From NCBI GenBank assembly GCA_016200265.1, contig JACQFE010000003.1, positions 1,126 to 65,125 of the forward strand: a stretch of DNA of 64,000 nucleotides, written 5' to 3'. Origin of the DNA: Planctomycetota bacterium (GTDB lineage Bacteria > Planctomycetota > Phycisphaerae > UBA1845). Below the pieces are notes generated by a model. The model ran no database searches. It was not told the DNA's origin and saw nothing but the letters and a program-made list of their open reading frames with translations. Each line of letters begins with the position of its first letter. Positions within the stretch are counted from its first letter, which is position 1. Below are positions 1,916-63,708 of this stretch, piece after piece. The translations under genes and the position numbers were made by a program.

Positions 1916-2473
1916 TCATTTCTCGATCGACTTCGGCATCCCTTCTTCAAGATCGACGCCCAGCCCGTCGGCCACGCGGTTGATGTAATTGAAAAAAGCG
2001 ATGGTTTGTGTGGCGTCGCTGATGGCCCGATCGTTCAGACCGTGTGATCGCAGCCGCTCAATATCGGACTGAGTGATCGTCCACGGCTCGCGAGTCAGCT
2101 TGATCGCGTGATCGCAAAGGGCGCGATCAACCGGCGACATCTTCGCCGTCGCGTAATCGATCATCACGCGGCGAACGAATTCCTCGTCGTGAACCTCCGA
2201 CCGGAGGTCGTACGAATGAGCAACCGTTCAGTAATGACAATGATTGGCGCGAGACACGACGACGGCCAGCATCTCCCGCTGTGCGCGGCTCAGCGGCGAT
2301 TCACCGCGAACGGCCGCCGTGTACAGATCGAGCATCCCCTGAAGCGCCGCCGGGCTCTGGCTTTGAATCTTGAGAATGTTGTAAACCCGTCCCGCGCGGC
2401 GCACTGCGTCATCGTAAATCGCGGCCAGCTTCCCGCCCGGCTCAGGCTGATCGATTGTCTGGATGAACGCCAT
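1916..2473 (-). CDS. Selenocysteine-containing AhpD/carboxymuconolactone-decarboxylase-like peroxidase (C-H-Y-U-T-V-A-H), 185 aa
   Basis: ORFs 2228..2473 and 1916..2167 are in the same frame and separated only by a TGA (2228-2230) and 20 open codons. The TGA occupies the second Cys of the AhpD CxxCxxxH motif. A SECIS-like hairpin lies downstream and tRNA-Sec is in the window. Confidence 0.9.
2192..2209 (-). promoter_or_regulatory. Bacterial SECIS hairpin
   Basis: On the minus strand, GACCTCC-GGTC-GGAGGTT forms a 7-bp stem with one G-U pair and a G-starting 4-nt loop. The loop is 25 nt downstream of the UGA. Confidence 0.8.
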
Positions 2474-12774: not shown

Positions 12775-14526
12775 ATGTCGAGAATCTTCAAGCCGAAGTA
12801 TCCGAAAATGCGGATCGTGCATGGCGCCGACGGCAAGCCGGTGATGGAACGGCGCATCGCGAAGCGGGGGCCGAACAAAGGCCAGCTCGTCACAATCCCC
12901 AAGCGTGAACCCGTCGTCGATTCCAACGGCCAAATCGTCTACAAGCGCTCCAGTCGATGGGCAATCGAGTACACGGATGCTCGTGGTGATCGGCGCACTG
13001 CGGCTGGACACACTGACAAAGAGGCGACGGAATCGAAGGCAGCGAAGATCGTCACGCGCATCGCCAGGCAGAAAGAGGGCATTTTCGATACTGACGTGGC
13101 GCACCTGCAGACACCGGTCAAGGTTCACGCGGCTGCATGGATTGCCGACCTTGAACGGACCGGCAGTTCCAAGGGGTACATTCGGATGGTGCGCGCCCGC
13201 GTCGGCCGTCTTTGTCTCGAGCTGCAATGGACGACGCCCCCCACCATCGATGCGGAATACGTAGCGGCGTGGCTGGCCGCACGCAAAGCGGGCGGGATGA
13301 AGCCTCGGACCCTGAATCACTACCTGGACGCTCTAAATGCTTTCTGCAAGTGGGCGAAGGTTGCAAAGCGTTTCGAAGTCAACCCCGTCGAACACGTTAC
13401 AAAGACGACGGTCGGGCAATCATCAGAGACGCGCCGAGCACTGTCAGCGGATGAGCTGGGGCGGCTGGTCGTAGTGCATCCAATTCGCGGGCGGGTATAT
13501 CTCACAGCGGCGCTGACGGGACTACGTAGAAGTGAGCTGGCGGCGCTCCAATGGGGTGACATACAGCTTGGCGGGGCGAATCCGCATATCTTGCTACGTG
13601 CTGAAACGACGAAATCGAGGCGTGCCGACACGATCCCTTTGAACGATGAAATCAGCCGGCGTCTGCGAGAGTGGCAACCCCCCCACTGTCTGCCCGCGGA
13701 CCGGGTATTTCAATCAATTCCACAGTGCCGCGCGGCCAGGGCCGCGACCGAAAAAAGGCCAGGCAAGTGCGCCAGCGCCTTCGATCGTGATCTTGCGGCC
13801 GCGGGAATCGAGAAAGAAGTCGATGGGCGGCGCGTCGATCTTCACGCGCTGCGAAAAACCATGAATGTGCTGTTGGCAAAGAGTGGCGTCGATGTGCGTG
13901 ACGCGATGACGTTGATGCGCCACACGGATATCCGCTTGACGACGAAGGTCTATGCCGATCCGCGGCTACAAGATCTTCACGGTGCGATGAACAAGATTCC
14001 GATCGTCGCGCCCGAGCCCGAGCGAGCACGCGCTTTCGGAACATGCGATGCAAGGCCAGACATACGCAAAAGCATACGCACAGGCATACGCGTCAGTGCG
14101 TCCGCGAGTGGCCGCAAGCGGGTCAAAATGCACATTGAACCGTCGGACGCGGAAGCACGGCGAACAAGCGCAACCGCTGGTGAGTGCCATAGTTATGACA
14201 CAAAAAATGAACGGAGCGGGAGGGATTCGAACCCTCGGTGCAGTTTCCCGCACACCGCATTTCCAGTGCGATCCCTTCAGCCACTCGGACACCGCTCCAT
14301 GTGTTTTCGCGACACGAGAATCCATCAACGATTGGCCTTGGCGCCAAGGATCGATTCCAATTTGCGCGAACCAGCGAATTTTGGCGGGATTGAGAACATC
14401 GGTCAAGCTGATGACGACCTTCGACGCATGGTTCAAGGGCAACTTCGCAATACGGTTGACATCACCGGGTCCGCACTTACATTGCATCTTCGGCCAAGGC
14501 GCAAGCCGATGCCCGAGGGCTCGTAG
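12775..14526 (+). CDS. Tyrosine recombinase (integrase); frame runs through the att core and antisense through tRNA-Ser
   Basis: Catalytic R (TGLRRSEL), K (TTKSRR), HxxR (HALR), H (MRHTD) and Y (TKVY). 487 codons lie up to the att end and 96 beyond it. Confidence 0.95.
   Translation: MSRIFKPKYPKMRIVHGADGKPVMERRIAKRGPNKGQLVTIPKREPVVDSNGQIVYKRSSRWAIEYTDARGDRRTAAGHTDKEATESKAAKIVTRIARQKEGIFDTDVAHLQTPVKVHAAAWIADLERTGSSKGYIRMVRARVGRLCLELQWTTPPTIDAEYVAAWLAARKAGGMKPRTLNHYLDALNAFCKWAKVAKRFEVNPVEHVTKTTVGQSSETRRALSADELGRLVVVHPIRGRVYLTAALTGLRRSELAALQWGDIQLGGANPHILLRAETTKSRRADTIPLNDEISRRLREWQPPHCLPADRVFQSIPQCRAARAATEKRPGKCASAFDRDLAAAGIEKEVDGRRVDLHALRKTMNVLLAKSGVDVRDAMTLMRHTDIRLTTKVYADPRLQDLHGAMNKIPIVAPEPERARAFGTCDARPDIRKSIRTGIRVSASASGRKRVKMHIEPSDAEARRTSATAGECHSYDTKNERSGRDSNPRCSFPHTAFPVRSLQPLGHRSMCFRDTRIHQRLALAPRIDSNLREPANFGGIENIGQADDDLRRMVQGQLRNTVDITGSALTLHLRPRRKPMPEGS
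14061..14092 (+). promoter_or_regulatory. Putative integrase arm-type sites (3 x CATACGC, 12-bp period)
   Basis: catacgcaaaag-catacgcacagg-catacgcg, ending 113 bp before the att core. Confidence 0.65.
14205..14235. repeat. att core, tRNA-proximal copy
   Basis: Identical 31-mer to 2662-2692, overlapping the last 24 nt of tRNA-Ser. Confidence 0.95.
14212..14298 (-). tRNA. tRNA-Ser (GGA), CCA not encoded
   Basis: GGAGCGG acceptor, TCGCA-CTGGAAA-TGCGG anticodon arm, long variable arm, GAGGG-TTCGAAT-CCCTC T arm. Confidence 0.95.
14456..14483 (+). promoter_or_regulatory. Putative sigma70 promoter of tRNA-Ile
   Basis: TTGACA-N16-TACATT, ~34 nt upstream of the tRNA. Confidence 0.5.
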
Positions 14527-16302: not shown

Positions 16303-16398
16303 CGGGAGTGGATGGGAATCGAACCCACCAGTCCCGGCGTAAACCGGGACTCGACGGCTTTGAAGGCCGCGGGACCCACCAGGCGTCCGGACACCCCC
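16303..16398 (-). tRNA. selC: tRNA-Sec (TCA)
   Basis: GCGGC-CTTCAAA-GCCGT anticodon arm, extended D stem with TGGT loop, 8-bp variable stem AGTCCCGG/CCGGGACT, GTGGG-TTCGATT-CCCAT T arm, G discriminator. Confidence 0.93.
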
Positions 16399-61084: not shown

Positions 61085-63370
61085 TCACAATAATGCGTTC
61101 TCCGACATCGCCTTCAGCCGCATCCAACGCCGGTCCACTTCGTCCTGCACTTCCTGCAGAAGCGGGGCATAGTCCGGGGTCAGCAAGTGACGATACGCGC
61201 CGCCCATTTTCCGAAATGCATCCGAAACCGGCACCTTCTTTCCACTTTTTTCGGGATCGATCGTCACCCGCGTAATGCCGTGCTCGATCTCGACCAGAGG
61301 GTGCATGCAGGCATTCACCATCGCTTCGACCGCCGAAGGCCCGACGTGTTCGTCCATGCCCCAATTCAGCGGGCACACAGAGAGTGCCTTCACAAATGCG
61401 AATCCGCCCGCTCGAACTGTCGCCTGGGCCTTTCGCGCCTTGCGGATCATATCCACGGCATGTAATTCGGCCGCGGTCGCCAGGTACGGGGCGAAGGTGC
61501 CGCGCAGAATTTCAATAATGTCCTTGTGGTGAGTGAGCTTCCCTTTCTGCGCGGCGCCGAGGTGTGCGTTACTGTTCCTCTGCCCTTTGAATCCGGTGTA
61601 GCAAAGCTGCGAGCCGGTGTTCATGTATCCTTTGTTGTCATATTCCAGCAGGATGAAAGGATCATTGCGCAGCGCCGCTCCGATCACCTGATCCATCCCA
61701 ATATCGTCGCCTCCGTCGCCGGTCACGACGATCGCCGTAATGTCTTCCGGAATCTCCCCACGAGCCTTGTAACGTTTGATCATCTCCACAACGCCGGTGG
61801 CCGTTGACGAGCCGTTATGAAAAAGATTATGGAAGTACGGCACCTTGAAGCTCGTCAGCGGATACCCGGTCGTGACGACCATTCCGCATCCGGTGTTGAA
61901 TAGGAACACGACGTGCCCATCGATGCCGCGAAGGAACAAATTCAGGGTCGTGAAAATACCACATCCCGGGCACGCCGTGTGTTTGTCAAAACGCGTCGGC
62001 ATGGACGACAGGTCCCGAAGATTGACTTTGCCGTCCTTGCCGGCGTTGCAGGAGCACTCCGCCGCGGTCAGTGGCTTGAGTGTCGGGAGAGGATGATAAT
62101 TCTCGTCACCCGCCCAGGCGCCGTAATACCATTTCGTGCGCGCCTCATCCTTGTCCTCCAGCTTCGGCCAGCGCGCCGCGAGATCATACATCGCCAGCGC
62201 ATCTTTGCCCGTGAAATTCAAGCCCCCCACGCCGTATGTTCGCTGGATGATCCGCGCATCGTTGCCGCGCCGCTGCAGGGCCGCCCCAATCTCATTGGCA
62301 AGATAATTGCTTGCCCCGTACTGACTTGCCCGCTCGGCGACGACAATTCGCTTCGCCCCACCGATCGCCGCGACGATTTCATCTTCGGGCCAAGGTCGCA
62401 GCACGATCGGAACCACCAAATTGACCGACTCGCCTTTTTCTTTCAGCTCATCGACCGCATCCTTGGCCGCCTCGCCCGCCGTGTTGAGAACGACCAAACA
62501 TCGCTCCGCGTCGCGATCACCATATTGATGGACAAAGTCATAGTGTCGGCCGCTCAGGAGCGCGAATTCCTTGAAAATTCGCGGCAGCAGTTCCTTCGCC
62601 TGCTCGAACTTGAGGTCCATCTGCACTTTGCAGTTGATCAGATCATCGTTCATGTACGGACCAAACGTCCGCGGATGATTGACATCAAGCAGATTGAATC
62701 GCCCGCTCTCCGCTTCAAGGGTCTTCCTGAATGGCGGCGGCCCAACGAATGTGCGAACGTCATTTTGATCTCGAAAAACCTGGATCCGCCGATTGGCGTG
62801 CGAAGTGTAAAACCCATCATAGGCCACGATCGCCGGCAGATTCACCGCTTCGGAAACCTTGATGGCGATGATGTTCATGTCATAGGCCGCCTGGACGGTG
62901 GGTGCGAGAAGAATGATCCACCCCCACCCAAGTGCGGCGTAAAGGTCAGAGTGACCGTTCTTGATGTTCAGCGGCGCGGAAACGTCGCGCGTGGAAAGAT
63001 TCAGCACCATCGGCAAGCCCAGCCCTGCAATGGCCGGCATCTGCTCGGCCTTGAGCATCAACCCATTCGCGCTGGTCACATCGACCGCGCGCCCACCCGC
63101 GACCGCCACGCCCGCGCAAATCGAAAGCGCCGCAAGCTCCGACGTTCCGATGATGAACGCCAAATCCGTCTCGCCATCAGCGACTGCCTTTGAAACAACC
63201 TCACCCACATCGGATGACGGCGTGATTGGATAATAGCCTTCCGCGTCGTAGCCGATGTCAATGATCGCTTTCGCAACCGCTTCATTGCCATTTCCCAGCC
63301 AGGGGACCTGTATGGCATGACTCAATGCAATGCGATTCGGCGGCCTAGCGATCTGGCTCATCGAAATCAT
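61085..63370 (-). CDS. Fused PorA-PorB 2-oxoacid:ferredoxin oxidoreductase
   Basis: GNEAVA, YYPITPS and TSANG in the alpha half; HTACPGCG, TGC, GDG, DNKGYMNTGSQ and CPLNW in the beta half. Confidence 0.9.
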   Translation of the reverse strand: MISMSQIARPPNRIALSHAIQVPWLGNGNEAVAKAIIDIGYDAEGYYPITPSSDVGEVVSKAVADGETDLAFIIGTSELAALSICAGVAVAGGRAVDVTSANGLMLKAEQMPAIAGLGLPMVLNLSTRDVSAPLNIKNGHSDLYAALGWGWIILLAPTVQAAYDMNIIAIKVSEAVNLPAIVAYDGFYTSHANRRIQVFRDQNDVRTFVGPPPFRKTLEAESGRFNLLDVNHPRTFGPYMNDDLINCKVQMDLKFEQAKELLPRIFKEFALLSGRHYDFVHQYGDRDAERCLVVLNTAGEAAKDAVDELKEKGESVNLVVPIVLRPWPEDEIVAAIGGAKRIVVAERASQYGASNYLANEIGAALQRRGNDARIIQRTYGVGGLNFTGKDALAMYDLAARWPKLEDKDEARTKWYYGAWAGDENYHPLPTLKPLTAAECSCNAGKDGKVNLRDLSSMPTRFDKHTACPGCGIFTTLNLFLRGIDGHVVFLFNTGCGMVVTTGYPLTSFKVPYFHNLFHNGSSTATGVVEMIKRYKARGEIPEDITAIVVTGDGGDDIGMDQVIGAALRNDPFILLEYDNKGYMNTGSQLCYTGFKGQRNSNAHLGAAQKGKLTHHKDIIEILRGTFAPYLATAAELHAVDMIRKARKAQATVRAGGFAFVKALSVCPLNWGMDEHVGPSAVEAMVNACMHPLVEIEHGITRVTIDPEKSGKKVPVSDAFRKMGGAYRHLLTPDYAPLLQEVQDEVDRRWMRLKAMSENALL

Positions 63371-63708
63371 CCTTTCAGGTAATCCAATGCCTTAATCACT
63401 TCCGGCAGGTGCGTGTACGTCGGTCCGCCCTGCATGACGACGGCCACGCCCGCTGCCTCAAGGATCTGTTCTCGCGTCGCTCCGGCCTTGAGGCACTTCT
63501 CGACGTGCATGTTGATGCAACTGACGCAGCGTACCGCCAGTCCGATCCCCAGCGCGATCAATTCCTTTTCGCGAACGCTCAGCGCCCCTTGCTTCATGAT
63601 CGCCTGAAACATCCCGCCGAATGCCCGAACCACATCAGGCATTTCGCTCTTCACGTTTTCCATGCTGGCGGGAAATTCCTCAAAAAAAGTCTCGGTTGCG
63701 GTTGTCAT
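63367..63708 (-). CDS. Carboxymuconolactone decarboxylase/AhpD-like protein (CxxC)
   Basis: GGAG RBS; GALSVREKELIALGI...CVSCINMH...GATREQILEA..V...GG. Confidence 0.9.
   Translation of the reverse strand: MTTATETFFEEFPASMENVKSEMPDVVRAFGGMFQAIMKQGALSVREKELIALGIGLAVRCVSCINMHVEKCLKAGATREQILEAAGVAVVMQGGPTYTHLPEVIKALDYLKG

Follow-up and report, generated by a model that had tools for sequence, protein, structure and literature searches.

An AhpD-like gene interrupted by a UGA codon in a Phycisphaerae planctomycete probably encodes a selenoprotein of the TIGR01926 family

A locus that standard gene calling divides into two short open reading frames contains a single gene for an AhpD-like protein, in which an in-frame UGA is very probably read through as selenocysteine (Sec) under the direction of a SECIS hairpin, and the product is likely a selenol/thiol oxidoreductase acting in peroxide defence. 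We give this reading a probability of about 0.92. The gene is located in a 64,000-nucleotide stretch of contig JACQFE010000003.1 (Planctomycetota bacterium, assembly GCA_016200265.1), hereafter called the window. The positions of the features discussed below are listed in Table 1.

Table 1. Features of the predicted selenoprotein gene, its candidate decoding elements, and homologous loci discussed in the text.
Feature	Position	Strand	Basis
AhpD-like (TIGR01926) predicted selenoprotein gene, complete	1916..2473	-	translation, TIGR01926 match, AF2 model
UGA codon 82, presumably read as U82 of C79-x-x-U82-x-x-x-H86	2228..2230	-	TGA column in homologues; Cys in solved homologues
Cys79 codon TGT, first residue of CxxU, presumed resolving thiol	2237..2239	-	sequence
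His86 codon CAT, invariant His of CxxUxxxH	2216..2218	-	homologue alignment
Glu67 codon, 12 residues before Cys79, putative counterpart of the AhpD catalytic Glu	2273..2275	-	invariant in alignment A1
Candidate SECIS upper stem-loop GACCUCC / GGUC / GGAGGUU, overlapping codons D89-L-R-S-E-V94	2192..2209	-	folding, pairing conservation, codon fixation
Possible extended lower stem back to the UGA, this sequence only	2173..2229	-	MFE structure of 66 nt from the UGA
tRNA-Sec, anticodon UCA, presumed decoder of the UGA	16304..16398	-	ARAGORN and Rfam RF01852
P0048 loci with TGG	L032:3001-3582, L033:1417-1998, L034:547-1128		codon read at the Sec column
Loci with an E2 gene upstream: L069, L077, L080, L084, L085, L086, L088, L102, L111	about 1-1498 of each	same as the AhpD-like gene	

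Under translation table 11, the locus appears as two ORFs on the minus strand, one of 81 amino acids (2473..2228) that ends in TGA and one of 83 amino acids (2167..1916) that begins with GTG. On read-through, translation of the window gives one frame of 185 codons (2473..1919), starting with the ATG at 2473 and followed by the terminal stop TGA at 1918-1916. The sole internal TGA of the joined frame (2230-2228) is codon 82 and belongs to the local motif N-H-C79-H-Y-U82-T-V-A-H86. The initial annotation had described the two ORFs as a single frame split by a UGA at the second Cys of a CxxCxxxH motif, and both the coordinates and the motif proved exact, with the gene lying on the minus strand. 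The region 2473..1916 is one gene, and it encodes a 185-residue AhpD-like protein of the TIGR01926, COG2128 type.

The joined protein scored 146.3 bits with TIGR01926 (peroxidase-related enzyme; cut-off 81.8), its residues 15-173 aligning with positions 14-173 of the 178 of the model and thus spanning the UGA, and Pfam assigned it to CMD. Homologues of solved structure (PDB 3C1L, 2PFX, 6K40, 2OYO, and 2PRR) aligned with residues 18-173, and a Cys was found at the UGA column in both alignments displayed (3C1L and 2PFX). The AF2 model of the joined protein (pLDDT 91.8, pTM 0.88) consisted of a single continuous all-helical domain, in which C79 and U82 were placed at the start of helix 80-94. Foldseek matched this model with the same five structures at TM scores of 0.85-0.88, the superposition on 6K40, the Deinococcus AhpD-like protein DR1765, having a TM score of 0.87 and an rmsd of 1.9 Å. 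Neither half makes up a complete domain: the UGA lies inside the TIGR01926 match, inside the PDB alignments, and inside the predicted fold. AhpD proper (TIGR00777) was matched with 18.5 bits against a cut-off of 191.95, which makes the protein a superfamily relative and not an AhpD orthologue. The score against NF041238 (AhpD_rel_CFYUT), 69.3 bits, was below the cut-off of 175 and involved only the C-terminal half of that model.

The codon at column 82 was read in the 95 nearest homologous loci, which were drawn from a one-genome-per-species scan (80 loci), from relatives, and from three metagenome contigs. It was TGA in 89 loci (about 94%), TGC in three, and TGG in three, and never TAA or TAG. 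The initial annotation had expected homologues to carry a Cys at this position, and apart from the TGG loci described below, Cys or TGA does stand there. By record title, the 95 loci belong to about ten phyla, among them Planctomycetota, Acidobacteriota, Chloroflexota, Verrucomicrobiota, Marinimicrobia, and Gemmatimonadota, with further loci in Acidimicrobiia, Latescibacterota, Zixiibacteriota, and Calditrichaceae; the closest ones are found in Phycisphaerae MAGs (Planctomycetota) and share 57-65% identity with the window protein. A search of 40 related genomes yielded orthologues of 52-71% identity with exactly one in-frame TGA each, and this TGA occupied the identical column in all 20 loci read from relatives. 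No relative was found to encode the two halves as independent genes, the homologue being one frame with a single TGA in 22 related genomes.

The residues around the UGA are also conserved. The Cys79 column contained C in 66 of the 79 aligned homologues and T in nine, and the His86 column contained H in 78 of the 79. In a group of Acidobacteriota homologues, the first Cys has been lost and the second one kept (T-R-Y-C). The genome from which the window derives has a single TIGR01926-like copy. One or two extra TIGR01926-like paralogue groups, with about 40% identity and an in-frame TGA each, were observed in related genomes (for example, G017:C28:27391-27924, G021:C138:54385-54918, L030, and L031), and the motif was C-H-Y-U-L-x-H-H in the two paralogue loci that were read (L030 and L031).

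A few homologues have departed from TGA. A genuine TGG (Trp) codon was found at the Sec column of P0048 (C-S-Y-W-T-Q-A-H) in three independent samples; this homologue retains a SECIS-type hairpin, GACCUCCGUGAAGAGGUC, and looks like the product of a recent TGA to TGG change at the catalytic residue. Two Cys-type loci with TGC (L118:301-810 and L119:301-882) have a full hairpin of -9.1 and -9.2 kcal/mol, respectively, and a third Cys-type locus, L120 (TGT), has lost it. The hairpins of L118 and L119 look like relic SECIS elements left behind by a Sec to Cys conversion. Because a hairpin is kept in these two loci and in the Trp-type locus L032, its presence alone is no proof of current SECIS function.

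In the mRNA of the window gene, the hairpin predicted downstream of the UGA is made of the arms GACCUCC (2209-2203) and GGAGGUU (2198-2192) and of the loop GGUC (2202-2199), all on the minus strand. Folded alone, it has 7 bp, including one G-U pair, and an energy of -10.0 kcal/mol, and its first loop base is 25 nt away from the UGA; the sequence and spacing given for it in the initial annotation were exact. A longer stem of -26.1 to -26.2 kcal/mol (z = -2.7 versus shuffled sequences) is predicted for the 66 nt that start with the UGA. The published model of bacterial SECIS elements has an apical loop of 3-9 nt with a G in the first two loop positions and an upper stem of 4-16 bp (PMC13188914), at a distance of 16-37 nt from the UGA and with an MFE of -7.5 kcal/mol or lower (PMC13188914, Fig. 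2). The comparison with a SECIS model that the initial annotation had proposed placed the window hairpin, with its 4-nt loop, within all four of these limits. So were 71 of 86 distinct homologous sequences when the mini-hairpin was folded alone, and the other 15, folded in the same way, fell outside one limit, mostly that of -7.5 kcal/mol. An Rfam scan of the whole window reported three tRNAs only and no family at the hairpin, and was thus uninformative on the SECIS.

The tRNA-Sec that had been noted in the same window was recovered both by ARAGORN and by Rfam RF01852, the latter with 64.2 bits (gathering score 47). The other components of the Sec machinery, whose presence in the genome the initial annotation had suggested confirming, are all encoded elsewhere in the assembly: selA (563.6 bits; cut-off 267.9), selB (388.8 bits summed; cut-off 242), and selD (378.5 bits; cut-off 125). 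The selD gene has an in-frame TGA of its own in the N-terminal motif SCAG-U-AGK (G000:C22:2366-3316, locus L010), and SelD is thus predicted to be a second selenoprotein of this genome. Among the 40 relatives, selA was present in 22 of the 22 genomes with a TGA-bearing homologue, and such a homologue was present in none of the six genomes devoid of selA, although this co-occurrence is a weak test in an order where the Sec trait is almost universal. TGA ends 14 of the 39 long ORFs in the window. It is not reassigned: it serves as an ordinary stop elsewhere in the window and also ends the selenoprotein gene itself.

We propose that SelB loaded with Sec-tRNA(Sec) would bind the mRNA hairpin at 2209-2192, that Sec would be inserted at position 82, and that the ribosome would go on to the terminal stop. 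U82 would then take the place of the attacking second Cys of AhpD-type CxxC proteins; the residue resolving the selenenylsulfide would be C79. The enzyme could reduce hydroperoxides directly or re-reduce a peroxiredoxin-type partner, and may be recharged by a lipoylated protein. E67, C79, U82, and H86 are invariant in alignment A1, with spacings of 12, 3, and 4. In a weak TIGR00777 alignment (offset 51), the four residues fall on model positions 118, 130, 133, and 137; in M. tuberculosis AhpD, we take these to be the catalytic Glu, both Cys, and the His, respectively. The second Cys of the M. tuberculosis enzyme is the attacking nucleophile, and the T-R-Y-C homologues of Acidobacteriota, in which the second Cys is the one kept, agree with a nucleophile at the second position.

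Nine homologous loci, six of them Sec-type and three Cys-type, and by record title mostly from Acidimicrobiia and Acidobacteriota, have a complete gene for a 2-oxoacid dehydrogenase E2 protein (lipoyl acyltransferase) whose 3' end immediately precedes the AhpD-like gene on the same strand. Pfam confirmed the lipoyl, E3-binding, and acyltransferase domains in three of the nine. This adjacency suggests a lipoamide-linked redox relay, and AhpD is known to be recharged by a lipoylated E2 protein (PMC8945050). In the window of the present genome, no peroxiredoxin, ahpC, E2, lipoyl E2/Lpd, or other redox gene adjoins the selenoprotein gene. A broader scheme, in which the whole Sec-dominated TIGR01926 clade would be a lipoamide-coupled selenoenzyme, a selenium version of the mycobacterial AhpD/E2/Lpd relay, and in which an ancient SECIS would have fixed the peptide D-L-R-x-E-V and would persist as a relic in the Cys and Trp lineages, is speculative and, in our opinion, rather unlikely.

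Different readings of the UGA itself have to be weighed against its decoding as Sec. It could be a real stop, either between two independent small genes or within the pseudogene of a former Cys-type gene, as table 11 and the deposition of the 81- and 83-residue products as separate proteins would have it. However, a genuine stop codon separating two genes would wander among TAA, TAG, and TGA, with loss of the frame, whereas in the 89 loci, spread over about ten phyla, a single frame is preserved and the catalytic column has TGA only, and the recurrence of both this column and the hairpin in 89 of 95 loci is far beyond chance. TAA and TAG moreover end 25 of the 39 long ORFs in the window, the two halves are incomplete with regard to family model, PDB alignments, and fold, and the genome has a complete Sec machinery, so that a real stop is extremely improbable. 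We consider it scarcely credible, too, that the UGA is read as Trp, Cys, or Gly through near-cognate decoding or a variant code. A Trp was found at the Sec column in 49 of 79 aligned database homologues (alignment of the homologues of at least 140 aa), and one lineage (L032-L034) has the genuine TGG described above. However, in two of the three W proteins checked (P0002 and P0004) the residue came from a TGA that the gene caller had translated as W (TGA=W), and only P0048 had a real TGG, so that Trp was rejected as the general residue at this column. Nor does another amino acid fit with the use of TGA as a common stop in the window, with the presence of tRNA-Sec, selA, selB, and selD and the co-occurrence of selA with the TGA form in relatives, or with the redox-active Cys that occupies the column in solved homologues.

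If the UGA is decoded as Sec, the hairpin at 2209-2192 might still be a by-product of the encoded peptide, the element bound by SelB being located elsewhere or having another shape. The stem is indeed written in the codons of the conserved peptide D-L-R-x-E-V, and part of its nucleotide conservation is therefore protein-driven; a hairpin is also still present in the Cys- and Trp-type loci L118, L119, and L032, although this is expected if these are relics of a recent Sec loss. However, the synonymous positions involved in pairing are nearly fixed against the background of the same 89 genes outside the hairpin: Leu at the hairpin is encoded by CTC in 74 of 75 cases (30% elsewhere), Arg by CGG or CGT in 82 of 83 (40% elsewhere, where CGC amounts to 42%), and Val by GTC in 60 of 66 (40% elsewhere). 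The G-G or G-U with which the loop starts comes from the Arg codon, and in the homologues its distance from the UGA stays constant at 24-25 nt. In the 86 distinct homologues, the six stem pairs were formed in 91% of cells, whereas sliding the 3' arm by 1-3 nt as a control left 27-56%. Two of the pairs showed C-G to U-A exchanges (Fisher p = 2e-7 and 2e-3, without correction for phylogeny), and pairing outlasts amino-acid changes, as in DLRxEI with GAU...AUC, in DFRDEV with UUC...GAA, and in DFRAES through a register shift. Covariation and synonymous constraint, both assessed with kinship ignored, thus point to a hairpin that is under selection at the RNA level, and a mere by-product is very unlikely.

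We give some weight to a further alternative, that of a Sec enzyme with another chemistry, although it is on the whole unlikely. The protein would then be a lipoamide- or disulfide-linked reductase, or would carry out a reductive dehalogenase-type reaction like that of Bmp8. Members of TIGR01926 are annotated merely as 'peroxidase-related', no peroxiredoxin gene is adjacent in this genome, and the AhpD-fold debrominase Bmp8 (6OHJ) was also matched by Foldseek, with a TM score of 0.81. However, the identity with Bmp8 is merely 14-15%, and the E-C-C/U-H constellation of AhpD is retained. The closest characterised homologue, DR1765 (33% identity, TM score 0.87), also argues for a role in peroxide defence, as its mutant is sensitive to H2O2 and is poorly complemented by CxxC mutants in D. 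radiodurans (PMC8945050).

The selenoprotein that we propose belongs to a class that is already known, as the initial annotation had stated, and neither a new kind of system nor a change in the knowledge of selenoproteins results from it. AhpD-like proteins with CxxU were described in 2005 from the Sargasso Sea as a selenoprotein family new at the time (27 sequences, COG2128; PMC1088965), ranked fourth in abundance among the selenoprotein families of the GOS data (299 sequences; PMC2398784), and were also reported from sequenced genomes (PMC1794560). A 2026 review lists the 'AhpD-like protein, TIGR01926, CxxU' (PMC13188914), and BSepDB has a family page for AhpD-like selenoproteins (PMC13326102). 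The window gene shows no essential difference from the AhpD-like 1 family (COG2128/TIGR01926), with which it shares the model, a CxxU motif with Sec in second position, and a candidate SECIS with G in a small loop; this copy is nearest to those of Phycisphaerae MAGs and is split in the public record.

Outside this family, DR1765 (6K40) and its structural-genomics relatives 3C1L, 2PFX, 2OYO, and 2PRR have a common fold and the E...CxxCxxxH arrangement with the window protein (31-35% identity, 26% for 2PRR), but they contain Cys where the latter is predicted to contain Sec. M. tuberculosis AhpD reduces AhpC and is itself reduced by lipoylated E2 and Lpd. This enzyme (TIGR00777) shares CxxCxxxH and the upstream Glu, with the same spacing of 12, 3, and 4, but belongs to a different subfamily, and the window gene has no adjacent ahpC or E2. 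The candidate SECIS resembles the SelB-binding one of E. coli fdhF in its short upper stem, in its small loop starting with G-G/U, and in its location within coding sequence 3' of the UGA, but no bulged U was seen in the window hairpin. The fdhF apical loop is GGUC, like that of the window hairpin, and lies a few nt nearer to the UGA than the 25 nt found here. NF041238, also known as 'hypothetical protein 1' from the Sargasso Sea, has a related C-terminal AhpD-like domain with C-x-Y-U-T, but its members are about 357 aa long, and the window protein resembles their C-terminal half only and is not a member.

The initial annotation had predicted that standard annotation would split the gene, and NCBI nr does list the 81- and 83-aa halves as two distinct proteins, on a contig of 71 kb. 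The joined protein, whether written with C or with W at position 82, was absent from the collection, in a look-up that a record written with U would escape. Of the 120 best homologues in the database, 42 fall short of 140 aa, most of them being C-terminal fragments of about 100-125 aa, and many fragment entries begin at a GTG or ATG just past the UGA (P0002-P0121). Many public full-length entries of the same set (P0002-P0121) carry a false Trp, a TGA=Trp code having been chosen on short contigs. Such systematic mis-annotation of selenoprotein genes has been described (PMC13188914, PMC13326102). The main value of the present analysis is therefore an annotation correction, in which two meaningless records of 81 and 83 aa become one probable redox selenoenzyme. 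It also adds one entry, beside the Sec-containing SelD, to the predicted selenoproteome of Phycisphaerae-like planctomycetes, and provides a clean example of a candidate SECIS conserved with covariation across many phyla.

The immediate surroundings of the gene in the window were rejected as a clue to its function. The convergent ORF 2-1273 had no Pfam match, a terminator scan downstream of the selenoprotein gene found none, and the opposite flank is the boundary of an integrated element. This element, of about 11.5 kb, is flanked by a 31-nt exact direct repeat, AAATGAACGGAGCGGGAGGGATTCGAACCCT, located at 2662-2692 and 14205-14235 and corresponding to the 3' end of tRNA-Ser(GGA) plus 8 nt, and it begins only some 190 nt before the start codon of the selenoprotein gene, on its upstream side. 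The closest loci, those of Phycisphaerae, share an upstream gene for a LysM/YkuD L,D-transpeptidase, which was discarded as a functional partner, as it has no obvious link with the selenoprotein and is missing from the window locus.

Between the selenoprotein start codon and the att repeat, a 29-nt inverted repeat of TTGTCGATTG units was observed (2482-2510 and 2632-2660), its arms being 86% complementary and separated by 121 nt. When the unit was searched for as a pair, with 4 nt between the copies and at most two mismatches, there were 48 matches genome-wide and none for the reversed control, and a gene-specific operator was rejected in favour of a dispersed repeat with a 7-nt periodicity.

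Finally, the initial annotation had pointed to a Cys-type CMD/AhpD paralogue at 63367-63708. The ORF on the minus strand at this position does encode a Cys-type CMD protein (Pfam CMD, 75.3 bits; CVSCINMH), but it shares only the CMD superfamily with the selenoprotein and was not retained as its paralogue, the BLASTP E-value being 12 and the ORF remaining unfound in a whole-genome search with the selenoprotein. Without pairwise similarity, it carries no information on a Sec/Cys pair. The stop of this CMD ORF overlaps the start of a 761-aa ORF (61085-63370) on the same strand.
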